Assembly: GCA_964016885.1 (NCBI GenBank)
Contig: OZ024740.1
Span: 290,284,001-290,348,000 of the forward strand
Origin: Eledone cirrhosa
Taxonomy: Eukaryota
Direction of reading: 5' to 3'
DNA length: 64,000 nt
Shown here: in pieces, positions 4,002 to 56,096 of the stretch
Numbering within the stretch: the stretch's first letter is position 1
How the letters are laid out: each line of letters starts with the position of its first letter
Notes under the pieces: generated by a model
What the model was told of the DNA's origin: nothing
The model's input: only the letters and a program-made list of their open reading frames with translations
Databases searched by the model: none
Translations under genes and position numbers: made by a program

Positions 4002-4415
4002 GGTGGCTGCCAACTCGTTTTCGAGTACGGCCACTACTTTATATCCATGTAGGAGAACCCCTACCGATGCGCTGAACGAGTGTGACTTTTTAGTCCAGCC
4101 AGCGACTTGTTAACTCTGGTACAAACACTACACTTGTGACAATTATTGACACATAGTGCTGGGCCCATGGTACCATGTGATGACAAGTGCAGAGAGATCT
4201 CCAGATATAAAGCAATGCCTGTGCCATGAAGCTTTTATAGTGAGCAAAGGCACTGCACAAAGCCACTCTCTTAACCAAGATGATATTTACCAAAAAGAAG
4301 ACCAAGTCAACATCATTGGATACCATCTGGGTTGCAGGTGTTATATCAGAGTTTTCCTTTTCCTAGAATTCTGCCTTGACAAAGGCTAAGGGGTCATCTC
4401 TCCCGGTGATTTTGG
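4000..4415 (-). mobile_element. Short non-autonomous element with RTE-like termini, in (CATA)n
   Basis: Termini similar to 1411-1700 but a different interior. (CATA)n on both sides. Confidence 0.55.
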
Positions 4416-4466
4416 ATACATACATACATACATACATACATACATACATACATACATACATACATA

Positions 4467-6962
4467 ACCCCTTCAAAAGAACAGGTTGAGAACTACTGGA
4501 GATCTGTATGGGAAACGGATGACGGATTCAACAGACAAGCTAATTGGCTAAAACAACTGGAACAGGACTACTGCCAACATGTCCAGACAAAACAATATGA
4601 CATAGATGGGTCAATACTGGAAACAGCTCTACAGAAAATGTCGAATAGGAAATCGCCAGGCCCAGACCTCATTACAGGATACTGGTTGAAGAATTTCACT
4701 TTCTATCGGCAAGATCTCATACGGCTGTTTACAGAAACCATTAAGGGCACACAAGAACTGCCCAGATGGTTATCAACTGCCACTACTCTCCTCATTCCCA
4801 AAAATAGCCAAACCACCCTTGCTAAAAATTACCGCCCAATTGCCTGCCAAAACATCATGTATAAATTATATACTGGGTGCCTTAACCTGTTCTTACAAGA
4901 TCACTGTGCTACCAACAACATCATAACACCTGAGCAAGCTGGTGGAAAGAGGGAGGTGTGGGGTTGCATAGATCACCTACTAACTAACAAAATGATTCAG
5001 GAAAAAACAACAAAGAATCGCAGAAACATGACTGTCGTGTGGCTGGACTATCAAAAAGCATTTGATAGTGTACCTCATGGGTGGATTATTAAGGCTTTAC
5101 AGTTAGCTAAAGTCCCACAACCATTAGTAGCTGCTGTTGAACGCCTGACCAAGAACTGGTACACCAATTTGATCCTTAGAGGTGAGAAGGAGCAGGTTAA
5201 GACTGATAGGATACATTACCAGAAGGGCATCTTTCAGGGTGATAGCTTGTCAGTACTACTCTTCGTTCTCTCACTGAATCCACTATCTTACCTACTCAGG
5301 AAACAAGGTGGACAAAGAAGTGGGCCCAGAAGTATCTCCCATCTTTTCTTTGTTGATGACCTGAAGTTGTATGGGCCAAATATCAATGACATCAAGAAAC
5401 AATTGGACCTCATTACACAATTTTCAACCGACATCAAAATGAAATTTGGTGAGTCCAAGTGTGCATATTTGGCAGTAAAACGTGGAAGAGCTGTGCCCTC
5501 CTCTAGAAATCTAGATATGAACGGCCTGACAATACAACCTCTGCAGTCAGGTGACAACTACAGATATCTTGGACAGGATGAGAATGTCAGATATGATGGA
5601 CCCATAAATAAGGAGAGAACCAGAACTGAATACCTCAGAAGAGTAAAAAAAATATGGTCATCAGAACTGTCAGCATACAACAAATACATTGCCCACAATA
5701 CCTATGCTGTGCCAATTCTAACGCCAACATTTGGCCTACTGAACTGGTCATTGCAAGAACTAAGTGAGATGGATGTTAGAACTCGTAAACTTCTCAGTGT
5801 TACTGGGAACTTTAACATCAATGGTGATGTGGATAGGCTATACTTCTCACGCAAGGAAGGTGGCCGGGGTCTAAAATCAATATTAACAACATATGAAACC
5901 CGGATAGTAACACTGAAGCAACACCTTCAACAGAGGAAAAAGGTTGGCGACCATCTTGCTCAGGTTTATGAGCATGAAAAAAGAAATATCATTAGAATAG
6001 CGACTGATCTGGAGGAGAGATATGGAATAAAGCCTGATATAAATCTCTCACCCAGAGAAATCGGAAGATCCTATTCAATGTTCAAACAAGGAAAAAAAAT
6101 TGACCAATTTACAGAGAAAGTTGTGCATGGATACTTGAGGCGTAAAACACAGACCATAGAGGGGATAAACCACTCAAAAAGCCTGGCATGGAGTTCCGAC
6201 AAGTTTATGACATCACACCTTGAGGGATATCTCTATGCAATACAGGAACAAGAACTCCCTACCAAATATCTGCTGCACAAAAGAGGAGGGCCAGCAGCTG
6301 ACAATAAATGTAGGCTATGTAAAACAAAGATCGAGGATGTAAGCCACATTGTTGCCAGCTGCGAAAGAATGTCATCTCGCTACTACCTCCCCATGAGACA
6401 CGATGGGATAGCTAGAACTATCTGGAACGCACTTCGGAAAACAAAATTAACAACAAACGAGGAAGAATATATTGAGACAGATGGCACTAAGGAATACTGG
6501 TGGAACCTGAAAATAAAAACTGCCACCAAATTAAAGCACAACCGGCCTGATATTGTAGTTTGGGACCACACATTGAAAACGTGTTCTGTTGTGGAGATCA
6601 GCTGCCCACTTGATGTAAACGTTGTCAGAAAAATACAGGAGAAGGAGGACATCTACGGACCATTGATGAGGAGCTTACAAATCCAGTATCCAAGATACAC
6701 CTTTAGCTTCATACCCATCATTATTGGTGCTACGGGTTATATACCAACCCGCTTGGACCAAAGTATGACCGAACTTGGATTTGCGGACAAAAAGCGCAGC
6801 TCCCTAATTCATAGTCTACAAATGGCTGCGATAGCTGGCACCTTCAAAATATGCAAAACATTCTTGCGATTCAAGGGATGACAATTTCTTTTCTTTTACA
6901 ACCTTGCCACCAGGAAGGTGGCCGGTCAAAAAAATATACTCGAAATTAAGAGAAAGAGAAAA
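4467..6962 (+). mobile_element. 5'-truncated R4/Dong-clade non-LTR retrotransposon
   Basis: Near-identical to 8724-11220. Starts abruptly after (CATA)n and ends GAGAAAA followed by (CATA)n. Confidence 0.93.
4638..6881 (+). CDS. RT, CCHC zinc finger and restriction-like endonuclease (N-truncated ORF of the R4/Dong element)
   Basis: KSPGPD, NYRPIAC, WLDYQKAFDSVPH, GIFQGDSLS, LFFVDDLKLY, CRLC..HIVASC, RHD, RPDIVV...VVEISCP. Confidence 0.9.
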   Translation: MSNRKSPGPDLITGYWLKNFTFYRQDLIRLFTETIKGTQELPRWLSTATTLLIPKNSQTTLAKNYRPIACQNIMYKLYTGCLNLFLQDHCATNNIITPEQAGGKREVWGCIDHLLTNKMIQEKTTKNRRNMTVVWLDYQKAFDSVPHGWIIKALQLAKVPQPLVAAVERLTKNWYTNLILRGEKEQVKTDRIHYQKGIFQGDSLSVLLFVLSLNPLSYLLRKQGGQRSGPRSISHLFFVDDLKLYGPNINDIKKQLDLITQFSTDIKMKFGESKCAYLAVKRGRAVPSSRNLDMNGLTIQPLQSGDNYRYLGQDENVRYDGPINKERTRTEYLRRVKKIWSSELSAYNKYIAHNTYAVPILTPTFGLLNWSLQELSEMDVRTRKLLSVTGNFNINGDVDRLYFSRKEGGRGLKSILTTYETRIVTLKQHLQQRKKVGDHLAQVYEHEKRNIIRIATDLEERYGIKPDINLSPREIGRSYSMFKQGKKIDQFTEKVVHGYLRRKTQTIEGINHSKSLAWSSDKFMTSHLEGYLYAIQEQELPTKYLLHKRGGPAADNKCRLCKTKIEDVSHIVASCERMSSRYYLPMRHDGIARTIWNALRKTKLTTNEEEYIETDGTKEYWWNLKIKTATKLKHNRPDIVVWDHTLKTCSVVEISCPLDVNVVRKIQEKEDIYGPLMRSLQIQYPRYTFSFIPIIIGATGYIPTRLDQSMTELGFADKKRSSLIHSLQMAAIAGTFKICKTFLRFKG

Positions 6963-7011: not shown

Positions 7012-10000
7012 AAAATGGCGACCGTTGTGGTCAGTGTCCGATAATCGGACGTATGTAATTACGGCTTACATGAAGGCAACATACCATATATTGGAAAAAG
7101 TTGAGCTACATTACGCGGTAAGATTACATACAATAATTCTACATAAGTGTTTGAACTGTAAGTGTGTTGTAAAACACCTATTTATATGAACGATACATAC
7201 ACTTATGATATATGAACGATACATACACTTTAACATATAAATGCAACGTTGTTATATTACATTTATAAAGAAATATACAAGTAACGTTTTCGATTCCGAA
7301 ACAAAAATATGAGTCTTTGAACTGTGAATATGTTGTGAATAGGTTGTAGAACACCTATTGATATGAATGATACATAAACTTTAACATATAAATACAGCGT
7401 TGTTATATTATATTACATTCATAAAGGAATATACTAAATAACGGTTCTTTTTGTTCTCGATTCAAACGATTCAAGAACAACGTTTAAAACACAGTTGTAG
7501 AATTAAAAACTAACTGAAAAGAAATATTACCCAAGCTGTGAATAACTTTAAATTTGATTCTGACAGAACTTTGTCGTAACTTTTAAAGAAGATCATCGAC
7601 TATTTTGAAAAATAAATATGAAATATTAGTGAATAGACGAACTCATCATGGCAAAAAGTACAAGTCTCCTTCGACCAAATCGCAATTACAACCGTTGTAC
7701 ACAGTGGAGCTACGAGCTTAACAAAGTATTATATGAAGCATACAAACAATCTGAACCCCAAAAGTTCGGTTTTATGCAAAGGATAAAAACTTTATGGAAC
7801 TCCAAACACCCAGAATTAGACTTTTCTCCAAAGCATCTAAATGAACAGGCAAAACGTATCATTAGATGTAAATTGAAACATCTAACGGAATTGAGTGATA
7901 CTACAAATACAGCCCTTGTAGACAACCACCCCACCTCCACTGACAGACAAAGAGAATGGCCAGCTAAATCTAACAATTTTGCTGAAATCCATCCCACTTC
8001 CACTGAAGAACAGCGAGAAAGGTCAGCTGACTCTAGTAGTAATTGTCACCACATCAACAACGAGGCTGAAATTCATGACTCTACTGAACAAACAGAGCAC
8101 CAAAAACTTGTGGGCTCCCTACAAGTGATATGGAACGATATGTTTCAAGAGATACACAGCCTTAATGTGAGTGACAGACCATACAACACTAGAATCAGTA
8201 AAGAACCCACTAAATTGGAATTGGAAGCGGTGAACGAAATAGCTGGCAGTTATCTGAAGGCTATACGATCTAAAGGTGTAGAAACGACATTTGAAACGCT
8301 TAATGTTTTGTTATATGTTTCAGCTGTCACATTACTATCATATAACACACATCTAAAACCACGCAATCAAGATACAAGCAGAAAGCCTGAACCAGCGTGG
8401 ATGCGAAATTTAAAAACCAAAATTTTGTCCCTGAGACGAAGTATCTCACACATCGCAGTCGTTATGAAATGCAACATAGAGAGCAACCTCACACGACACC
8501 AGGAAGACCTAAAGAAAAAGTTAGAGAGACGATTTGGAGATACAAAATTTAAAACTTTGAACTCCAAATTACACCAGTTGAAACAACAACTCACAGCTAC
8601 AACAGAAAGACTGAAATATAAGTCAACAGCACATAAACGACAAGTGCTAAATAGATTGTTTGCCAGAGATCCTAAATCAGTCTATCGCAGCTTCGGTGGC
8701 AAAAGCTCAATCTCTGTAAATGACACCCCTTTAAAAGAACAGGTTGAGAGCTACTGGAGATCTGTATGGGAAACGGATGACGGATTCAACAGACAAGCTA
8801 ATTGGCTAAAAGAACTGGAACAGGACTACTGCCAACATGTCCAGACAAAACAATATGACATAGATGGGTCAATACTGGAAACAGCTCTACAGAAAATGTC
8901 GAATAGGAAATCGCCAGGCCCAGACCTCATTACAGGATACTGGTTGAAGAATTTCACTTTCTATCGGCAAGATCTCATACGGCTGTTTACAGAAACCATT
9001 AAGGGCACACAAGAACTGCCCAGATGGTTATCAACTGCCTCTACTCTCCCCATTCCCCAAAATAGCCAAACCACCCTTACTAAAAATTACCGCCCAATTG
9101 CCTGCCAAAACATCATGTATAAATTATATACTGGGTACCTTAACCTGTTCTTACAGGATCACTGTGCTACCAACAACATCATAACACCTGAGCAAGCTGG
9201 TGGAAAGAGGGAGGTGTGGGGTTGCATAGATCACCTACTAACTAACAAAATGATTCAGGAAAAAACAACAAAGAATCGCAGAAACATGACTGTCGTGTGG
9301 CTGGACTATCAAAAAGCATTTGATAGTGTACCTCATGGGTGGATTGTTAAGGCTTTACAGTTAGCTAAAGTCCCACAACCATTGGTAGCTGCTGTTGAAC
9401 GCCTAACCAAGAACTGGTACACCAGTTTGATCCTTAGAGGTGAGAAGGAGCAGGTTAAGACTGATAAGATACATTACCAGAAGGGCATCTTTCAGGGTGA
9501 TAGCTTGTCAGTGCTACTCTTCGTTCTCTCACTGAATCCACTATCTTACCTACTCAGGAAACAAGGTGGACAAAGAAGTGGGGCCAGAAGTATCTCCCAT
9601 CTTTTCTTTGTTGATGACCTGAAGTTGTATGGGCCAAATATCAATGACATCAAGAAACAATTGGACCTCATTACACAATTTTCAACCGACATCAAAATGA
9701 AATTTGGTGAGTCCAAGTGTGCATATTTGGCAGTAAAACGTGGAAGAGCTGTGCCCTTCTCTAGAAATCTAGAGATGAACGGCCTGACAATACAACCTCT
9801 GCAGTCAGGTGACAACTACAGATATCTTGGACAGGATGAGAATGTCAGATATGATGGACCCATAAATAAGGAGAGAACCAGAACTGAATACCTCAGAAGA
9901 GTAAAGAAAATATGGTCATCAGAACTGTCAGCATACAACAAATACATTGCCCACAATACTTATGCTGTGCCAATTCTAACGCCAACATTTGGCCTACTGA

Positions 10001-11220
10001 ACTGGTCATTGCAAGAACTAAGTAAGATGGATGTTAGAACTCGAAAACTTCTCAGTGTTACTGAGAACTTTAACATCAATGGTGATGTGGATAGGCTATA
10101 CTTCTCACGCAAGGAAGGTCACCGGGGTCTAAAATCAATATTAACAACATATGAGACCCGGATAGTAACACTGAAGCAACACCTTCAACAGAGGAAAAAG
10201 GTTGGCAACCATCTTGCCCAGGTTTATGACCATGAAAAAAGAAATATCATTAGAATAGCGACTGATCTGGAGGAGAGATATGGAATAAAGCCTGATATAA
10301 ATCTCTCACCCAGAGAAATCGGAAGATCCTATTCAATGTTCAAACAAGATAAAAAAATTGACCAATTTACAGAAAAAGTTGTGCATGGATGCTTGAGGCG
10401 TAAAACACAGACCATAGAGGGGATAAACCACTCAAAAAGCCTGGCATGGAGTTCTGACAAGTTTATGACATCACACCTTGAGGGATATCTCTATGCAATA
10501 CAGGAACAAGAACTCCCTACCAAATATCTGCTGCACAAAAGAGGAGGGCCAGCAGCTGAAAATAAATGTAGGCTATGTAAAACAAAGATCGAGGATGTAA
10601 GCCACATTGTTGCCAGCTGCGAAAGAATGGCATCTCGCTACTACCTCCCCATGAGACACGATGGGATAGCTAGAACCATCTGGAACGTACTTCGGAAAAC
10701 AAAATTAACAACAAACGAGGAAGAATATATTGAGACAGATGGCACTAAGGAATACTGGTGGAACCTGAAAATAAAAACTGCCACCAAATTAAAGCACAAC
10801 CGGCCTGATATTGTAGTTTGGGACCACACATTGAAAACGTGTTCTGTTGTGGAGATCAGCTGCCCACTTGATGTAAACGTTGTCAGAAAAATACAGGAGA
10901 AGGAGGACATCTACGGACCATTGATGAGGAGTTTACAAATCCAGTATCCAAGATACACCTTTAGCTTCATACCCATCATTATTGGTGCTACGGGTTATAT
11001 ACCAACCCGCTTGGACCAAAGTATGACTGAACTTGGATTTGCGGACAAAAAGCGCAGCTCCCTAATTCATAGTCTACAAATGGCTGCGATAGCTGGCACC
11101 TTCAAAATATGCAAAACATTCTTGCGATTCAAGGGATGACAATTTCTTTTCTTTTACAACCTTGCCACCAGGAAGGTGGCCGGTCAAAAAAATATACTCG
11201 AAATTAAGAGAAAGAGAAAA
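7012..11220 (+). mobile_element. Full-length R4/Dong-clade non-LTR retrotransposon
   Basis: ~635-bp 5' UTR directly after the (CATA)n spacer, a single long ORF, and an ~80-bp 3' UTR identical to the upstream copy, followed by CATA. Confidence 0.93.
7648..11139 (+). CDS. 1163-aa retrotransposon protein: N-terminal domain, RT, CCHC, RLE
   Basis: Uninterrupted ORF. N-terminal W..ELN...Y...W motif like R4/Dong proteins, FVDD RT core, PD..E-type RLE. Confidence 0.93.
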   Translation: MAKSTSLLRPNRNYNRCTQWSYELNKVLYEAYKQSEPQKFGFMQRIKTLWNSKHPELDFSPKHLNEQAKRIIRCKLKHLTELSDTTNTALVDNHPTSTDRQREWPAKSNNFAEIHPTSTEEQRERSADSSSNCHHINNEAEIHDSTEQTEHQKLVGSLQVIWNDMFQEIHSLNVSDRPYNTRISKEPTKLELEAVNEIAGSYLKAIRSKGVETTFETLNVLLYVSAVTLLSYNTHLKPRNQDTSRKPEPAWMRNLKTKILSLRRSISHIAVVMKCNIESNLTRHQEDLKKKLERRFGDTKFKTLNSKLHQLKQQLTATTERLKYKSTAHKRQVLNRLFARDPKSVYRSFGGKSSISVNDTPLKEQVESYWRSVWETDDGFNRQANWLKELEQDYCQHVQTKQYDIDGSILETALQKMSNRKSPGPDLITGYWLKNFTFYRQDLIRLFTETIKGTQELPRWLSTASTLPIPQNSQTTLTKNYRPIACQNIMYKLYTGYLNLFLQDHCATNNIITPEQAGGKREVWGCIDHLLTNKMIQEKTTKNRRNMTVVWLDYQKAFDSVPHGWIVKALQLAKVPQPLVAAVERLTKNWYTSLILRGEKEQVKTDKIHYQKGIFQGDSLSVLLFVLSLNPLSYLLRKQGGQRSGARSISHLFFVDDLKLYGPNINDIKKQLDLITQFSTDIKMKFGESKCAYLAVKRGRAVPFSRNLEMNGLTIQPLQSGDNYRYLGQDENVRYDGPINKERTRTEYLRRVKKIWSSELSAYNKYIAHNTYAVPILTPTFGLLNWSLQELSKMDVRTRKLLSVTENFNINGDVDRLYFSRKEGHRGLKSILTTYETRIVTLKQHLQQRKKVGNHLAQVYDHEKRNIIRIATDLEERYGIKPDINLSPREIGRSYSMFKQDKKIDQFTEKVVHGCLRRKTQTIEGINHSKSLAWSSDKFMTSHLEGYLYAIQEQELPTKYLLHKRGGPAAENKCRLCKTKIEDVSHIVASCERMASRYYLPMRHDGIARTIWNVLRKTKLTTNEEEYIETDGTKEYWWNLKIKTATKLKHNRPDIVVWDHTLKTCSVVEISCPLDVNVVRKIQEKEDIYGPLMRSLQIQYPRYTFSFIPIIIGATGYIPTRLDQSMTELGFADKKRSSLIHSLQMAAIAGTFKICKTFLRFKG

Positions 11221-12668: not shown

Positions 12669-15510
<2,842 letters not shown>

Positions 15511-15540
15511 CATAACTCGTGTGTTACACCTCTTTTCTTT

Positions 15541-15575
<35 letters not shown>

Positions 15576-20780: not shown

Positions 20781-20821
20781 TGCTGTACTAGTTTCAAGCT
20801 TATTAGCTATCGTCAGCAACG
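20781..20821 (-). ncRNA. Type-I hammerhead ribozyme (420-bp family)
   Basis: Reverse complement reads CGTTG-CTGACGA-TAGCTAATAAGCTT-GAAA-CTAG-TA-CAGCA. Confidence 0.85.
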
Positions 20822-21011: not shown

Positions 21012-21052
21012 CGTTGCTGACGATAGCTAATAAGCTTGAAACTAGTACAGCG
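21012..21052 (+). ncRNA. Type-I hammerhead ribozyme (420-bp family)
   Basis: CGTTG-CTGACGA-T-AGCT-AATA-AGCT-T-GAAA-CTAG-TA^CAGCG. Palindromic stem III ACTAGT, GUA triplet. Confidence 0.88.
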
Positions 21053-22946: not shown

Positions 22947-25304
22947 TCGAAATATAACAAAGGAATATAACAGATAAAATCCATGGGGCTGGACAACATA
23001 GACAAGAGGACGACCGACTCTCTAGCATCTTCTACCTCAGTCGGTCGCCCTCAAGTGTTGGCTATTCGGTCTACTTATGACCATGAGGTGAGGGGGCGAA
23101 AGCTTATAATGTGCTACTACCTCCCCATCAAAGAGAAACAAGAAGAAAGAAAGAAGAAAAGCCAGCGTTAAGGTCATGCTATAATCAGGCTAGAAATTGC
23201 CGCGAAAAATGTTTTTCCAAAGAACCTATATCTTAACAGAGGCATATAGTGGGTGTCTGTATGGTATAATGTGTGAACAGAAATTTGGAACGTTAAACTT
23301 ATGTTTAGAGTTATAGGATGAAATTAAATAAATTAAAAAAAGTTTAAGGTTTGGGTTGCGAGATTTAGTTAAAGAATTTACAGAGAGAGTCTTATATGAA
23401 AAAGTTTAAGTGTATTATAGAGATTCTCGATAAGTTTTCAGGGTGGGATATAGAGTAAATATTAAGCCCTTGTCTAGCAGTCAATAACACGCGACGACTA
23501 GAGATTCCGGCCAGCCCTTCCTAACCACGTGTCAACCGTTCCGAGTGATATCGTCTAGCGAAAGAAATAGAAATAAATTTTTCCGAGTACTCCAGGAATA
23601 TAACTGTCTTAGGCGTCGGGTGTGCTAGCGGGAAATCTGCCATCGCCGTCAGGCCATCGCTATACCAAACGAATACTATTAATTCACACAGGAGGGGTAT
23701 TTGTTTACGTGCCAGTAGAGGGAGGCATGATACAGCTAATAGTTATAATTAGGCCTAGAATTTAAAGGTATTATATGGCGGTCAAAACCGGCGGCGCGGC
23801 GGGCCCCGGGGCGAAGCAATCCGCTCCGAGTAATTTCATTTACCGAAAGAAGGGGAAATTTATTTTTCCAAGCACTCAAGGAAGGCTTATGCACCAGAGC
23901 GCCAGGCGCGCAGCCGGGAAAGGCGCCACATCAGTCGGATCATCGCGTGTAACCAAACGATTATTATATATTCACACCCGTGATGTGAGGTTGAAAGTGG
24001 TAAAACCCGGTGAAATGCTCAAATAGACTATATTTAAGTCCCCAGTTAGTCCGGGTTATAAGTAGTGTGGTTCTTTGGTGGGTAGAGGGAGATATAAAGG
24101 TACAGAGAGTAATATTCTAGTGTTGTGTGCTAATGAGCACAATGATAAGTACATAATGAGAGTAAAGCGAGTAAAAACCTAAATAAAAGGAACAATAAGC
24201 AAAAATACATAAATAAATAAAAGCAGAATACAAAGGTAAAAATACATTAATAAAAATACATTAAAAAAAGTAAAAATACTTAAATAAAACGCCGTCATAG
24301 CTAGGGTGGTGATGGAGTAAAACGGAAGTATATAAGAACATTTCGGAGAAATCAAAACACAGGGGAAATACAATATAGATCAAGTTGCAGTTAGATAATA
24401 CAAGGTTATACATATAGATATAGAGGATGGAGGAGATAGAATGGTATCAGGCGATACCTAGTGGATGTTCGAGTCTCAGAATTCAGTGTGAATCACAAAG
24501 GCCCTCAAGTATAGGGTAGAGAATTCAGTCAATACAATACAGGTTGTAGTATAATCCGTAGAATTTTGTCGAAGTCTGAATATTCCCGACAGGGAAGCAA
24601 CATTGGACCAGGTGGGCGGTAGACAAAGCACAGAGCAGCCAAAATCCGAATGGTGAGTAGATCAGTCAGTTCCATGCTGGCGATAGCTGTACACTGGAGT
24701 CAGTGCCGCTGTTCATTATTGAATCTGAAAGCGCTCAACATTTCTGAAGTTTCTTTCTTCTTTTTTCTCTTTGTATTATTGGTTTTTTCCCCTGTATTAT
24801 TGATAACGCACTGTATATCTCTCTCTGGTGCGTTACCTTTTCAACATATTGTATTTTAAAGAGCTCAGAATCTCTTCTCCTTTGAGCACATTATTTACAG
24901 GGAATAGCGAGGGCCTATGCCTCCGTTAATTTATCGTGATATTTCGCTCCTAATAACAGTCTTTCCTATCTCTGTTTGGTTGAGCACACTTCTCTGAGTG
25001 GCTTTGGGCTGTCCTTTCTAGCAGTTCGTCCCTCAGAGGCCACAGGTTCACTGCCCTTAAACACGCTGTGACTTCTCTCTCCCACGTGTAGCTGGACAGT
25101 CAATTTTAAAATTCTCTTAGTGTTGTCTGAAATGTATAGCCTTATAAGCTTTCGCTCCCTCACCTCATGGTCATAAGTAGACCGAATAGCCAACAGTTGA
25201 GGGCGACTGACTGAGGTAGAAGATGTTAGATGGTCGGTCGTCCTCTTGTCTATGATTTCCAGCCCCATGGATTTTATCTGTTATATTCCTTTGTTATATT
25301 TCGA

Positions 25305-28266: not shown

Positions 28267-28822
28267 TTAATTTATCGTGATATTTCGCTCCTAATAACAG
28301 TCTTTCCTATCTCTGTTTGGTTGAGCACACTTCTCTGAGTGGCTTTGAGCTGCCCTTTCTAGCAGTTCGTCCCTCAGAGGCCACTGGTTCACTGCCTTAA
28401 ACACGCTGTGACTTCTCTCTCCCACGTGTAGCTGGACAGTCAATTTTAAAATTCTCTTAGTGTTGTCTGAAATGTATAGCCTTACACACGCTGATGAACC
28501 GAGACTAACCCATTTCTTTCAACAATTTATTGGTGAAACATAACTTTGGATTTGTACGTGTGTTATATAGTTATAGAGGTATTTATTTACGCTTTAATTT
28601 AAATTTTTAATTATCGTGTCTATAGTCTGCCTTTCATAGGTTATAGATTCCATACACTGGTGGTTTTTTTCCCTGTCTTATTGATAACGCACTGTATATC
28701 TCTCTCTGGTGTGTTACCTTTTCAACATATTGTATTTTAAAGAGCTCAGGATCTCTTCTCCTTTGAGCACATTATTTACAGGGAATAGCGAGGGCCTATG
28801 CCTCCGTTAATTTATCGTGATA
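28267..28822 (+). mobile_element. 540-bp hammerhead-containing unit with 16-bp terminal redundancy (retrozyme or pLTR-like)
   Basis: Begins and ends with TTAATTTATCGTGATA (28267, 28807). Related copies at 24779-25145 and 48683-49428. Confidence 0.88.
28484..28563 (+). ncRNA. Type-I hammerhead ribozyme (540-bp family)
   Basis: ACACACG-CTGATGA-ACC..GGT-GAAA-CA..TG-TA^CGTGTGT. 7-bp stem I, GUA triplet. Confidence 0.85.
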
Positions 28823-28834
28823 CACACACACACA

Positions 28835-28918
<84 letters not shown>

Positions 28919-37900: not shown

Positions 37901-40059
37901 CGAGGACAAGGGGGACGATGTAAATAATTTCAGCGTTACAGATTTTGGCCAAGGTGCTAGCCAAGAGGTTGGCGCTTGTCGTGGGCAACCTGGTGGGAGA
38001 TGCGCAGATATGTGCTATCCCGTCCAGGTCCATCCACGACATCCTCCACCTAATGCGATACATCATAGAGAGGGTTGGCAACGAACCCGGCTTTGGTGGG
38101 GCCCTGATCAACTTGGATCAATCTAAGGCGGTCGATAGGGTCGACCATGGTTACCTGGCTGCGATGCTAGCGGCGGCAGGCTTCGGACGCGTTTTCAAGG
38201 GCTGGATCACTGCCATGCACAGCAGCCGCATCTGCTCTAGGGTCAAGGTGAAAGGCTACCTCTCGGAACCGTTCGAAACCACGCGGTCCATCCGACAATG
38301 GTGCCCTCTCTACTCCCTTCTCTATGTAATGACTCTAGAGCCCCTGCTGCGGAAGTTGGAGTTGTTGCAGGGCATCACGTTGGAACCGGGATTGCGGAAA
38401 GCAGTGTCGGCCTACGCCGATGACGTAACAGTAATGGTGTCGACGGACTTGGAAATCGGGGCGATCGGCACCTTACTGAAGGAGTACGAAAGGTTTACAA
38501 GGGCTAAGCTGAGCCGGGACAAGTCAATCGGTCTGCAACTCGGCACGTGGATGGGAAGATCGATGGCCTCCGACGGCGCCGTTGGGCGCTGGACGGAGGG
38601 CCCGGTGCAGTTGCTCGGGGTTTGGTTCGGACCAGACCTCCAGATGGAGAAGAACTGGGGTGAGGTAACGAACAGGGTGTTTGCACTGACCCAGAAGTGG
38701 GCCGTGTGCAAACTGTCCCTGAAAGGTCGGGCGGAGGTGGCGAACACTTATATAGCATCCGTCATCTACTACCGCCTGACCGTTGTGCCTTGCCCAAGGG
38801 AAACGCTCGCCAAAATGGAGCGCGCACTCTTCCAGTTCCTTTGGAAGAAGCGGGCTCCTATGGTGAGGAGATCCATCTGCTATCAACACCCTTTGAAAGA
38901 AGGGCTGGGACGTCGTGGCTGATGATGCGCAAACACGCATTAAGGCCACGGCACCTCCAGGTATTCCTCACCGGTCGACCGATGTGGGCCCCATTTGTGA
39001 GGCGAGCCTTTCCCAGACTCGTCTCGCTCACCGAGCTGCAATCCTGGGTCAAGCAAAGACCGAGAAAACTAGGCGCCTGGCACACCGAGTGTGCCCAGGC
39101 GCTCACGTCTCTCTGGCAGGCGGACCCGGCTGTCAGTGGAGAATCCACCTCGTCATTCTATAGCGGGCTGGTGGTTAGCAGGTGCGACGACGCCCTCGGA
39201 GAAGCCCTAGACATGGAGGAAAACGAACTGGCCAACCTGTTCGGTAGGACATTCAGCCCGGGACCTATGGATAACTTCCAGAGGTCCCTGGCCTGGCAGT
39301 GCTACCGAGGGGCTCTGCCCGTTCGAGAAAGGCTCTACAGACACGGGCGCCCGGGTAGGGACTCCTCGAAAGAGATCTGTCCCAGATGCGTGTGCGACGA
39401 GGAAACCGTTGCACACGTATTGGTACACTGCTCGGGTATTGCCGATCTGTAGAGCTATGCCGAACGACTGCTGTCACGAGTGGGACCGATCCGGTTGACC
39501 ACCGAGTCTATTGTAACGATCAAGCCGCCTACCCTCTTCATAAACGAAAGAGAGGCGGTGTTTCTGTGCTTAATAACCATGGTGAAAGAGGTTGTATGGT
39601 GGACGCGTCTGAAAGGACTGAGGTCAGACACCTTTCTCTCTGGCCAACAACTGGTCCGTTTCTTCCGATATCATTTCGGAAGAAGGATCAGGATGGAGAG
39701 AGAGGTGCTGCACCCCAGCCGTTTTTATGAAAGATGGGTGAAAGTGGCGAGAATGGCCTGTGTGAATGGGCCTTCATTCTATATCAGACTGTAGGTGAGA
39801 AAGATATATGATCAAGGGAGCACCCTTTCTCTGTGCTCCTGAGGAGAAGGGTTGCACACTTTTTCGGGGGGGTGATCCCCCAAGGCGCCTCCTCCCTATT
39901 GAGGATTTTGTTATTCAATTTATTTTTGTTATATTTTATATTTTTATATTTTCATATTTTGTTATTGCCTCCTCCTTATTGAGGACGCCATTTTATGTAA
40001 ACTCCCCCCATTGTACTTGTCCCACTCTTTGACGCCCTGGTGGCAAATAAAAAGAAAGT
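34673..40059 (+). mobile_element. L1/Tx1 element 2 (decayed, most of the 5' UTR missing)
   Basis: ORF1 34714-36395 (CYLCGARGH). ORF2 36420-39794 with APE, YADD and CPRC..H...HC. AATAAA then (TATC)n. Confidence 0.93.
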
Positions 40060-43000: not shown

Positions 43001-45484
43001 GTCAGAAGCAAAATACGTGCTCTGGGAAACGAGGGAGCCAAAGCTGTTAGCTGGGCCCGAGTGACGGAGGCGAAAAGTGGCAACAAGTCCACGATTCGGT
43101 CTTTGAAGGACCAAACGTGAACCCATACGTGAACGTGAGCCGAAGCAAATGTTCGCGGCCTTTCAGCGGCACTTTGCTCAACTGTTCTGGCAGGGCGGCG
43201 CGCCGGGAAGGGCTATGGATTTCGGTTCATACCTCGACGGCCTACCGCGACTCTCGGACAGCAAGGCGAAGTTCTGCGAAAGGCCGATTTCGGCCGCTGA
43301 GATAGGGTATGCGTTGAGCCAATGCGGCAAACGCAAATCGCCAGGTCTCGACAGTCTACCCTACGAATTTTACGTAACAATGCCGGACTTGTTCTCCGGT
43401 CTCCTGGAAGCGGTCTACTGCAACTGGCAGCAGAACGGGAGAATTCCCAGTTCTGTGACCAAGGGCGTAATCACGTTAGTCAGGAAGGACGAGAACAAGG
43501 GGGATGACATAGGCAACTTCCGACCCATAACTCTGCTCAACACAGAGTTACAGATTTTGGCCAAGGTGTTGGCAAAGAGGCTGGCGCTTGCCGTCGAAAC
43601 CTAGTGGGAGAAGCGCAGACATGCGCAATCCCGACCAGGTCCATACACGACAACCTCCACCTCATGCGATACATCATAGAGAGGGTAGGGTGTAAACCCG
43701 GCTTCGGTGGGGCCCTGATCAACTTAGATCAGTCTAAGGCTTTCGATAGGGTTGACCATCGTTACCTGGATGCCATGCTCGAGGCGGCAGGCTTCGGACT
43801 CGTGTTCAGGGGCTGGATTGCTGCAATGCACAGCAGCATCATCTGCTCAAGGGTCAAGGTGAACGGCTACCTCTCGGAGCCGTTCCATATCAAGCGATCC
43901 ATCCGACAGGGATGCCCTCTCTCCTCCCTTCTGTACGTACTGACTCTCGATCCACTACTGGGGAAGTTGGAGCTATTGCAGGGCATCCCTTTGGAACCGG
44001 GACTGCGGAAAGCGGGGTCGGCCAACGCCGACGACGTGACAGTAATGGTGTCGATGACCTCGCAAATCGGGGAGATCGGCACTTTACTGGAGGAATACGA
44101 AAGGTTCACAGTAGCGAAGCTGAACCGGGACAAATCCGTCGGTTTGCAACTCGGAACGTGGAGAGGCAAACCGATGCCTTCCGATGACGTCGTCGGACGC
44201 TGTATGGAAGGACCGGTAAAGATGCTCGGGGTCTGGTTTAGTCGGACCTCCAGGTGGAGAAGAACTGGAACGAGGTGACGGCCAAGGTGTTTGCGCTCAC
44301 CCAGAAGTGGGCCGAGTGAAAACTATCCTTGAAAGGTCGAGCGGAGGTGGCGAACACTTTTATAGCGTTCGTCATCTACTACCGCTTGACCGTCGTGCCT
44401 TGTCCAGCCAAAACGTTCACCAAAATGGAACGCGCGCTCTTCCAATTCCTTTGGAAGAAACGGGCTCCTTTGGTGAGAAGATCCAGCTGCTGCCAACACC
44501 CTTCAAACGGAGGTTTGGGATGCCGTGGCTGACGATGCGCAAACACGCGCTCAGGCTGCGGCACCTCCACGTATTCCTCACCAGACAATCGGTGTGGGCC
44601 CCGTTCGTGAGGCGAGCCTTCCCACGACTCGTCTCACTGACCGAGCTGCAGTCCTGGGTCAAGAAAAGACCGAGGAAAATGGGCGACTGGCACATCGAAT
44701 GTGCTCAGGCGCTCACAGTCCTCGGGCAAACGGACCCGGCGATCAGTGGAGACTCCACTTCGACATTCTATAGAGGGTTGGTCCGCAGCAAGTGCGACGA
44801 CACGCTCGGAGAAATTCTAGGCGTAGAGGAGGACGAACTGGCCAGTCTGTTCGGTAGGATCTTCCGCCCGGGACCAATGGACAACTTCCAAAAGTCCCTG
44901 GCCTAGCAGTGCTACCGAGGAGCTCTACCAGTTCGAGACAAGCTCTAAAGACACGGGCGCCCGGCAGGGACCCTTCGAAAAAGATCTGTCCGAGATGCGT
45001 GCGCGACGAGGAAACCTTCGCACACGCATTTGTACACTGCCCGGGGGTTCCCGACCTGTGGAACTATGTAGAACGACTATTGTTGCGGGTGGAATCAATC
45101 CAGTTGACCTCCGAGTCCATTGTCATGATCAAACCACCACCCTCCTTCAAAAACGAGGGAGAGGCGGTTTTCCTATGTGTTATGGCTATGGTGAAAGAGG
45201 TTATATATTGGACGAGGTTAAAAGGGCTGAGGTCAGACACCTTTCTCTACGGCGAACAACTGATTCGTTTTTTCAAATATCATTTTGGAAGAAGAATCAG
45301 GATGGAGAGAGAGGTGCTGTACCCCAGCAAATTTTAAAAAAGGTGGGTGAATGTGGCAACGATGAGCCTTCTCTCTATATAAGCCTGTAGGTTGAGGAAA
45401 AAGTTTTATTTTCATATACCTGTATGTAAACTCCCCATTGTATTTGTCCCCTTCTTTTGTGCCCTTGTGGCTAATAAAGAAATT
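40099..45484 (+). mobile_element. L1/Tx1 element 3 (decayed, both ends present)
   Basis: ORF1 40310-42244 (CYQCASRGHLSAAC). ORF2 42267-~45390 with a deletion near 42730 and YADD changed to NADD. AATAAA then (TATC)n. Confidence 0.93.
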
Positions 45485-48682: not shown

Positions 48683-49428
48683 TATCACGATAAATTAACG
48701 GAGCCATAGACTCTCGCTATTCCCTGTCAATAATGTGCTCAAAGGAGAAGGAATTCTGAGCTCTTTAAAATGCAATATGTTGAAAAGGTAACACACTAGA
48801 GAGAGTGATAGTACGCCATCAATAAAGCAGGGAAAAACCACCGGTGTATGGAATCTATAACCTATGAAAGGCAGAGTAGACACACGATAATTAAAAATAT
48901 AAATTAAAATGTATATACATGTCTCTATAACAATATAACACACACGTACAAATCCAAAGTGATCTATTTCGCCAATAAGTTGTTGACAGAAATGAAATAG
49001 CCCATGGTTCATCAGCGTGTGTAAGACAACTCTAAGAGAATCTAAAGCGACCGTCCATCTACACGTGGGAGAGAGATTTCACAGCGTGTTTAGGGCAGCG
49101 AACCAGTGTTGTCTGAGGGACGTGCTGCTAGAAAGGGCAGCCCCAAACCACTCAGAGAAGTGTGCTCAACCAAACAGAGAGAGAGGAAAGACTGTTATAA
49201 GGAACGAAATATCACCATAAATTAACGGAGCCAGAGACTCTCGCTATTCCCTGTCAATAATGTGCTCAAAGGAGAAGGAATCCTGAGCTCTCTAAAATAC
49301 ACTGAGCACACTTCTCTGAGTGGTTTTGGGCTGCTCTTTCTAGCAGCTCGTCCCTCAGACACCACTGGTTCACTGTCCTAAACACGCTGTGACATCTCTC
49401 TCCCGCGTGTAGCTGGACGGTCGCTTTA
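48683..49428 (-). mobile_element. 540-bp-family element: ~1.2 tandem units plus an inverted fragment
   Basis: Junction motif at 48683 and ~49209, minus orientation to ~49302, then 49303-49428 in plus orientation. Confidence 0.88.
48940..49022 (-). ncRNA. Type-I hammerhead ribozyme (540-bp family)
   Basis: ACACACG-CTGATGA-ACCA..TGGC-GAAA-TAGATC/GATTTG-TA^CGTGTGT. Confidence 0.83.
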
Positions 49429-54234: not shown

Positions 54235-56096
54235 CACTGGTCTGCGTTTCAAAACTTTTTTAAAAAGGTCAAGGATTTTCCAAATGATTTAGGACCCTTT
54301 TTGCATGCTGAATTCAAATCTCCCCATATCTGCTGCAAAACATGTGTAGAGAAGTTACGGGATTGTAGGAACAAGAAAAGGAAGAGTATGCCATTTGGTG
54401 TCCCAATGGTGTGGAGGGAAGGGAAAGATCACGTTACCGACTGCTACTTTTGCATGACAAATCTAAAAGGCATCAATCGCAAGAACAAGCACCATGTTCA
54501 ATACCCTGATGTTCCTTCTGCCATAAAGCCAGTCCCCCATGGCCCCGATCTTCCTGTTCCTGAGCCAAATGTCACCATGGAATCTAGTTCTGATTCCGAA
54601 TCTAGTGACATGATTGATACAGCTAAGTGTGATGAATACAGGTCAGAAGAGGACGACCAACCGGTGCCTTTGACCCAAGCCGAACTCAATGACCTGACAC
54701 AAGACCTGAACCTTTCGAAGGAGTCTGCCCAGCTACTGGATTCTCGTCTTCGAGAGAAACGTCTACTGGCGCCAGGAACAACATTCTATTGGTATCGGGA
54801 CCGCGAGAGAGAATTTAGAAAATTCTTCATGTTTGATGAAGCATCTTCACTGGTCTACTGTAGCAATATTGCTGACCTGATTGAATTACTTGGTCTGAAG
54901 TATGATGCTATGGAATGGAGACTTTTCATTGCCTCATCTAACAGAAGTCTCAAAGCAGTTCTTCTGAATATCGGAAACAAGTTTTCATCGACCCCTGTTG
55001 GGCACTCAGTTGAAATTAAAGAATCCCACAAAAGCATGGAACGTCTGTTGTCTGCTCTGAACTACCAGAAACATAAATGGTTGATCTGTGGAGATCTTAA
55101 AGTTGTTGGACTCATCCTAGGACTTCAAGGTGGTTACACAAAGTATCCATGTTTTCTGTACTTATGGGATAGCCGTGCTGATGACCAGCATTATGTCAGA
55201 TAAGAGTGGCCTTTAAGACAAGGATTAAAACCTGGATCACACAACGTTTTTTCCCACCCTCTGGTTGAACCGAGCAAGATATTGCTTCCAACCCTCCACA
55301 TCAAACTCGGTCTCATGAAAAACTTTGTAAAGGCATTGGACAGGGAAGGTGGAGGATTTGCTTTCCTCCATCAGAAGTTTCAACGAAAAGGCATGGAGAA
55401 AATTAAGGCAGGTATATTTGATGGTCCTCAAATAAGGGAAATCATCAAGGATACTAGTTTTGATGATGCACTGAATCCTGCTGAACTCTCTGCCTGGTTG
55501 TCCCTTAAGTCAGCCATTGCAAACTTCCTTGGCAACCACAGAAGTTCCCAGTATCAGAAGGTGGTTAATGAGTTAATGGAGAATTTCCGCCAACTTGGTG
55601 CGCGCGTGTCAGTGAAAATGCACTTCCCCCGGTCTCATCTGGATTATTTTCCAGAGAATTGTGGAGACTTCAGTGAAGAACATGGTGAGCGCTTTCACCA
55701 AGATATCAGTGTTATGGAGGAACGCTATCAAGGCCGATGGGATGTCAACTTTCTGGCCGACTACTGCTGGTGCCTAAAGAGGGATGCGCAGTCTGCTCAG
55801 CACAAACGGAAGTCCCTGAAGAGACCATTCATCCATGAGTAGCTTCCTTAGTTCATTATACTCTTCTTGCTATCTATTCAAAATATTTTGTAAGCCTTCT
55901 GTGAATAAATCAGTCTAATATTTTCAATATTGCGTTTTATTCACCTACAAATAGATCGGAATTTAGGATATTTTTAATGTGCTATTATTTCATTAACCTG
56001 ATCTGATTGAGTAAAATGAGCATGATTTTTGGATTCAGTGCAAAAAACTGGCCTAAAATCATGTATTATATGTTAGACCTTGAAAACATCGCAGTG
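54235..56096 (+). mobile_element. Chapaev3-like (CMC) DNA transposon, internally deleted
   Basis: CACTG...CAGTG termini with a shared subterminal GC..CTGAAT.CAAA motif, enclosing a transposase remnant. Confidence 0.75.
54322..55842 (+). pseudogene. Transposase pseudogene (N-truminus deleted, one stop at 55201-55203)
   Basis: PMVWRE..DH.TDCYFC, ICGDLKVV..LGLQGGYTKYPCF, LHIKLGLMKNFVKAL, GIFDGPQIR, SEEHGERFHQDI, ADYCW. The two listed ORFs are in the same frame. Confidence 0.88.

Follow-up and report, generated by a model that had tools for sequence, protein, structure and literature searches.

A dispersed, non-coding unit of 540 nt in the genome of Eledone cirrhosa is probably a non-LTR retrozyme, the RNA of which would have been copied into (TA)n runs by the reverse transcriptase (RT) and GIY-YIG nuclease of a Penelope-like element (PLE) of Neptune type. 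As a retrozyme it is known in kind, and what is likely to be unusual is the clarity of the evidence for PLE-type integration. So far, mobilisation of animal retrozymes by PLEs has been argued from co-occurrence and from likeness to pLTRs; in this family the insertions themselves bear the PLE signature, with end points defined at base level, beside young and intact PLE frames in the same genome. They also offer a small and testable substrate for the formation of PLE tails and inverted arms and for the question of an RNA-circle template. The exact two-site anatomy beside intact candidate enzymes is the part worth keeping.

The 540-nt unit and its copies in the window

The window is the whole stretch of 64,000 nt that was analysed, and positions in the unit are numbered from q1 (window 28267) to q556 (28822), with the predicted cut after q290. 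The original prediction started from a 16-mer shared by the start and the end of 28267-28822, and this repeat is indeed present, leaving by sequence comparison one 540-nt unit on the plus strand (28283..28822, 39% G+C) without an open frame, the longest ATG frame of its sense strand being 26 codons. Since it has neither an RT nor a GIY-YIG frame, the unit is non-autonomous. It is to be noted that the 16-mer is not a terminal repeat but the stub of a second, 5'-truncated lap: sequence comparison places the 16-nt end of the preceding lap at 28267..28282 (+), where it abuts a TA run at its left. On the other side, the copy passes through a second family-wide 3' end, end site A (28730..28739, +; q464, 469 and 473), goes on through an 87-nt "tail" between end sites A and B with two predicted hairpins (28736..28822, +), and stops at end site B (28819..28822, +; q556), whose terminal ATA matches the TA target. 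The (CA)n/(TA)n microsatellite target, to which no strand applies, follows at 28823..28915.

Two other copies were said to read straight through the end-to-start junction, at 24779-25145 and 48683-49302, and both do so. The former is a partial copy of q395-556 and then q17-218 (24780..25144, +), aligned as 24780-24941 (q395-556) running into 24926-25144 (q1-218); it reaches only the first base of stem I and has no ribozyme. At 25142 the unit meets a 5'-truncated copy of another hammerhead family on the same strand with a TTA overlap, and this join is either a template switch between two retrozyme RNAs or an insertion with deletion. The latter is a subfamily B copy on the minus strand (48683..49301) with a full unit, 76 nt of upstream lap and a hammerhead at 49015, in which 49301-49210 (q465-556) leads into 49225-48683 (q1-556). 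Its insertion has in addition an inverted, head-to-head arm of q56-175 at 49303..49422 (+), overlooked earlier. The two complete copies share their 3' end as had been claimed, namely TTATCGTGATA followed by a (CA)/(TA) run. In three contig sets from one sample, the junction and the inversions are present as DNA. Elsewhere in the window, two consecutive open frames at 54235-55842 have no Pfam match and resemble a broken DNA transposase, which is an impression only.

The hammerhead motif

The type I hammerhead motif of the window copy, drawn from motif and pair tables, lies at 28484..28563 (+). Stem I is formed by 28484-90 with 28557-63, followed by CUGAUGA at 28491-97; the base of stem II (28498-502 with 28530-34) encloses a long variable loop, and GAAA (28535-38) leads into a looped stem III at 28539-54. 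This is the type I layout, with the core CUGANGA/GAAA/NUH, stem I open and stems II and III closed. The 7-bp stem I and the core are kept in both complete copies, just as the original prediction had it, with CUGAUGA, GAAA and GUA in each; the predicted cuts follow 28556 and 48947, at 266 and 264 nt before the 3' end, respectively. Stem III had been singled out as looped and non-palindromic; looped it is, but there is nothing unusual in it, as this is the canonical type I form shared by other families of the genome. Among animal non-LTR retrozymes, neither a looped stem III nor circular permutation is out of the ordinary. A private change at 28543 puts an A-A mismatch into stem III of the 28267 copy, which is a weakened hammerhead copy, and in the 48683 copy stem II begins with an A-C mismatch at its base.

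A strict hammerhead pattern of the family gave 921 matches in the whole genome and none in the backward-read control, and therefore the motif is not a product of chance. Rfam yielded no hammerhead match, whether the gathering score or E<=10 was taken as the limit. The basal pair of stem II, which is G-C in the hammerhead consensus, is instead A-U in all 39 A motifs and A-C in 21 of 22 B motifs. An active axolotl ribozyme has a U-U mismatch at this place (PMC7229834).

The best evidence for the putative ribozyme comes from stem I of subfamily D, in which pair 3 is G-C instead of A-U in 19 of the 20 scored copies. An apparent class of about 19% of copies with an inactive GUG site was rejected, being subfamily D with a shifted stem I. 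Covariation in stems II and III, proposed earlier as a check on the motif, exceeded shuffles in the first motif set (53 distinct motifs, 94% of cells paired, three two-sided changes; 0 of 500 shuffles as high, with kinship uncontrolled), but did not in a second set of 41 B and C motifs. Stem III is paired in A, B and C through different pair sets, partly via a register shift, and the two-sided changes of stem III in subfamily C were discarded as classical covariation, for they are mostly a one-base register shift. A sub-lineage (L327, L367, L369, L381 and L382) has a short tandem duplication within stem III. As for conservation, no column of 29 in the core and stem I differs between A and B, against 33 of 444 in the flanks, a contrast that alone is not significant. 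In subfamily C, 326 of 348 core cells carry the majority base of their column, as do 8,000 of 9,024 flank cells, a contrast that is partly circular because C was first found via the core pattern.

The gap between the hammerhead fold and the predicted minimum is 2.3-2.7 kcal/mol in three typical A copies, and it widens to 6.5 for the copy of the window and to 7.7-11.3 for four B copies. Circular folding of the unit beats shuffles with z = -3.5 in two copies (40 shuffles each). To judge from stem I, compensated across the whole of subfamily D, the hammerhead is maintained by selection; cleavage is a prediction, and catalysis is likely.

The 540-nt family is not alone. At least five other type I hammerhead families, mostly with a short palindromic stem III, are seen in the window, with motifs at 21017, 21486, 21906, 57212 and 17654 on the plus strand and at 20816, 22942 and 25590 on the minus strand. 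In 750 kb of the genome (L096-L170), hammerhead-like motifs number 80 and belong to many families, with 3 in the reversed sequence, so that the 540-nt family is a minor one; this density would extrapolate to some hundred thousand motifs in the genome. Many of the hammerhead families in these 750 kb have head-to-head pairs, two end sites 60-92 nt apart, and TA runs.

Size and subfamilies of the family

Exact matches in the 3.0-Gb genome to 23 nt just past the cut site number 246 and 1,020, and at least 1,266 copies of the hammerhead region can be counted for the family, which splits into four subfamilies with identities as low as about 70%. A DNA search of the genome, in which 40 of 2,679 candidates were scored, gave 117 matches with a period of 540-541, and a single insertion was met in the 750 kb mentioned above, taken as 75 evenly spaced 10-kb stretches, which is consistent with a few thousand. 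Mean pairwise divergence is 3.5% within subfamily A, 8.0% within B and 11.9% between them. Subfamily C is about 70% identical to A and keeps the core, the stems and both end sites, while D is about 83% identical and accounts for 28 of the first 30 of the 246 matches. Copies are scattered across many contigs and arrays reach four units in a row. The hammerhead pattern of the family has no match in metagenome contigs and none in viral contigs.

End sites and inverted arms

Fixed 3' ends, variable 5' ends and copies longer than one unit had been foreseen for an element of this kind, and all of these are found. In a set selected for full length (59 loci; 60 were fetched and one duplicate was dropped), a selection that favours q556, 52 copies end at q551-556 with no overhang, 52 have TA runs as their 3' flanks, and 50 carry more than 20 nt of an upstream lap, with a median of 92. 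At 30 of these loci the insertion opens with a piece in inverted orientation, and in 19 cases this piece ends at q464-473. The unbiased set, made of the first 30 pattern matches along contig 1, comprises 28 insertions: 12 with their end at site B (q556), another 12 at site A (q469-473) and 4 at neither. Sites A and B are separated by 87-92 nt. Thus, of the fixed priming point predicted about 265 nt from the cut, the distance is right (266 and 264 nt), but the point is not a single one: two sites are used equally, and in pairs.

This pairing is clearest in the pooled set of 114 insertions (121 loci minus 7 duplicates), 56 of which are head to head: 38 combine A with B, 2 B with B and none A with A, and 16 have one end elsewhere. 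Where both ends lie at a site, A is paired with B in 38 of 40 cases (p = 7e-10 against 50:50), with the result that the tail stands at one end only. Every end point finishes in A/T bases that match the target, while any target-site duplication is masked by the microsatellite flanks. Both end sites are also retained in subfamily C.

What distinguishes the tail and the end sites? The two hairpins of the tail are kept in three subfamilies, with a weak RNAalifold consensus of -2.7 kcal/mol; the two-hairpin model is 91% paired and its covariation is not above shuffles. A GTGTGTTAC-like motif about 18 nt before an end is common to the unit and two PLE tails, but it was noticed post hoc, is a lead only, and is not retained in subfamily C. 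Collision of two RTs at site A was considered and dropped (3 of 34, not significant), and arms that stop inside stem III are a weak signal (7 true of 60, after one false call was removed).

Penelope-like elements in the same genome

Partial tandems, an inverted arm and a one-ended tail are together the published signature of PLEs (PMC8557442; PMC3846280), and (TA)n targets are those of Neptune and Naiad PLEs (PMC8557442). The window itself has a broken copy of an autonomous Neptune-type PLE at 12725..15544 (-), in which a GIY-YIG frame lies at 13945-14697; this copy, too, shows an inverted arm and has its tail at one end. This family has 21,970 candidates in the genome and many intact 784-aa frames, consisting of RT, CxxCxxC linker and GIY-YIG. 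Such an order is the Neptune/Nematis layout (PMC8557442), and the designation "Neptune type" is assigned, as judged from the sequence, by the domain order and linker described in that paper and not by a tree; relatives found in a protein search with the frame carry no clade label. The PLE of 12725-15544 looks very young and abundant, many copies being 96-97% identical.

Like the 540-nt unit, this PLE is inserted into TA runs with an inverted arm and a tail, here of about 38 nt, and its end sites are paired in all 15 loci with both ends visible (of 30, scored by eye, with three likely duplicates). It also forms tandem copies with a period of 4,734 nt, and a search of the full 4,734-nt unit with the canonical pattern found no hammerhead. 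At least four further PLE families reside in the genome, one of them with a tail of about 70 nt. Another of these families (L204-L206, L214) has a minimal hammerhead, in which four bases replace stem II and stem III is looped, in its 3' region about 400 nt past the stop codon.

Among 80 loci with PLE nuclease frames, a sample that covers the families incompletely, no homology to the 540-nt unit was found except two independent insertions, and therefore the class of the driver is inferred from insertion anatomy. The PLE of the window is a candidate for this class.

Template and proposed mechanism of integration

Integration from a circular or multimeric RNA had been proposed. The laps and ends bear out a tandem or circular template and internal priming, whereas the circle itself is not established, because the autonomous PLE of the same genome, which lacks a hammerhead, also makes tandem read-through copies. 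Among the arms that hold the post-cut stretch, 58 of 60 continue upstream through the cleavage site; cleaved linear monomers were thus not the template, which was either an RNA left uncut or a circle closed by ligation. Run-off of RT at the cut was rejected, as 5' ends lie there in 2 of 60 and 2 of 176 cases without pile-up. Reads over GUA^CG, once suggested as a check, cannot reveal a circle since the genomic DNA is continuous there.

On balance the template was somewhat more probably an RNA circle: this would explain why a conserved ribozyme leaves no mark of its cut in the cDNA ends, and related retrozymes provide a precedent (PMC7229834). In subfamily A, pieces differ from their own main unit by 1.8% against 4.0% from other loci when direct, and by 2.6% against 4.2% when inverted, and lineage alleles are common to the arms of one insertion in 267 of 278 direct and 97 of 104 inverted comparisons (0.57-0.59 with other loci). 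Each insertion therefore had one source, which is compatible with a circle or a uniform array.

The other template, an uncut linear tandem transcript or repeated template jumping, with no need of a circle, is a serious possibility; the hammerhead would then trim read-through RNA or simply ride along, and the scheme would depart from the preferred one in its first step only. The tandem copies of the hammerhead-less PLE speak for it, and so does the anole PLE, whose insertion in vitro did not require cleavage (PMC11167929). The large folding gap of subfamily B points the same way. Four A insertions (L012, L013, L020 and L028) mix two haplotypes in their direct laps, which counts against a circle of a single monomer. 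In L020, the same basal pair of stem III is broken in both units (1177-1265 and 1716-1804), although three lineage sites distinguish them; this shared defect, too, is on the side of a tandem transcript. Against it, the ribozyme is kept and compensated, yet the pile-up of 5' ends at the cut that trimming should produce is missing, direct laps are mostly concordant, and related animal retrozymes have been demonstrated as circles (PMC7229834).

With the circle as preferred template, integration might proceed as follows. First, a locus with two hammerheads would be transcribed and self-cut into unit-length RNA, which host ligase would close into a circle; this step, a little better than evenly balanced, is modelled on coral, mussel and axolotl retrozymes, and has the uncut tandem RNA as its alternative. 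It is to be noted that at least two same-strand cores, which could release a monomer, are present in only 13 of 114 insertions. Second, the PLE enzyme would nick both strands of a TA run. The target is observed, and the nicking is suggested by the anole PLE PAc, which nicks both strands of AT-rich DNA and has two internal start sites (PMC11167929). Third, each nick would prime at its own fixed site within the RNA, the two sites lying 87-92 nt apart as the observed ends do and each ending in a few A/T bases that match the target. Fourth, cDNA would pass back over the cleavage site, often into a second lap, with the variable stop that is observed. Fifth, a second arm, if kept, would be joined head to head by short overlaps, leaving the tail at one end only, as observed.

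In its most specific form, the scheme would have a hammerhead-free Neptune-type PLE capture a ribozyme-made 540-nt circle, with twin priming from both target strands at sites 87 nt apart; taken as a whole, we put this forward tentatively and with considerable doubt. If true, each insertion would be a record of twin priming on a single RNA circle, the RNA would be recognised by its structure or a short motif and not by pLTR homology, and many hammerhead families would share the enzyme.

Other explanations

Could the inverted arm arise by fold-back, that is, self-priming on the first cDNA, or from antisense RNA, without priming at a second nick? This has been suggested for rotifer PLEs (PMC3846280), and in 7 of 48 clean head-to-head insertions the arms start within 12 nt of each other, besides sharing alleles as described above. 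In 5 of the 48, however, neither arm is contained in the other, and both arms must thus have been copied from RNA; the other 36 cases do not help to decide, one of their arms being almost full length. The strict pairing of A with B and the target-matching ends of both arms also fit two primings, and fold-back is rather unlikely.

LINE insertions, too, show 5' truncation and inversions (twin priming), and the window has several LINE-type RT frames (RVT_1, zf-RVT) at 4410-6881, 7633-11139, 37924-39452 and 43508-44278. The unit might accordingly be a SINE-like passenger of an AP-nuclease LINE, with a TA tail and twin-priming inversions. Since priming is internal to the permuted unit, laps cross the junction, and the paired use of two sites is just that of the genome's own PLE, such a passenger is improbable. 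Equally improbable is that the copies are mere end fragments (pLTRs) of an undetected autonomous PLE bearing a hammerhead. Retrozymes are pLTR-like in Xenopus (10.64898/2026.07.22.740005), a minimal hammerhead does occur in one PLE family of the present genome, and PLE families are incompletely sampled; but laps run from end to start without coding sequence between them for up to four units, none of 57 loci of the family has a PLE frame attached, and the subfamilies evolve as whole units. Finally, DNA recombination might have spread the unit as a satellite whose motif is dead or accidental, as short arrays and the lack of an Rfam match could suggest. This reading is already contradicted by the end statistics, that is, fixed 3' ends and 5' truncation, as well as by dispersal over many contigs and the compensated stem I, and deserves hardly any credence.

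Comparison with known systems

The animal non-LTR retrozymes (Cervera & de la Pena 2020, PMC7229834; Li, Clavereau & Pollet 2026, 10.64898/2026.07.22.740005) are alike in having a non-coding, tandem-capable unit with a type I hammerhead, in a G+C content below 50%, in the absence of an LTR, in a range from monomers to multimers, and in coexistence with PLEs. At 540 nt, the unit is longer than the tested RNAs of animal retrozymes of 170-400 nt (PMC7229834) but fits the 51-972 bp covered by the 2026 survey (10.64898/2026.07.22.740005). Unlike them, insertions here are mostly shorter than two units and showed no pLTR homology in the comparison with 80 PLE loci. Paired end sites with inverted arms were found for no animal retrozyme in the main texts of the papers covered, mostly non-subscription ones, and may be in print elsewhere.

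The EN+ Neptune-type PLEs (Craig et al. 2021, PMC8557442; Arkhipova et al. 2013, PMC3846280) share partial tandems, an inverted 5'-truncated arm, a one-ended tail and a (TA)n target with the 540-nt unit, which in turn has no RT or nuclease frame, a tail of 87-92 nt instead of 30-40, and a hammerhead of full size instead of a minimal one. The non-autonomous Chlamys elements such as MRC1 (PMC8557442) are likewise non-coding PLE passengers, arranged head to tail in microsatellites; as described there, they share 3' ends with their partners and are mostly without hammerheads, and the 540-nt unit differs in both respects. Another likeness is to the anole Poseidon element PAc (Frangieh et al. 2024, PMC11167929), in which two internal starts downstream of the hammerhead define the tail, the target is AT-rich and both strands are used. 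PAc has neighbouring start sites within its coding region, whereas those of the 540-nt unit are far apart and non-coding, with ends that match the target.
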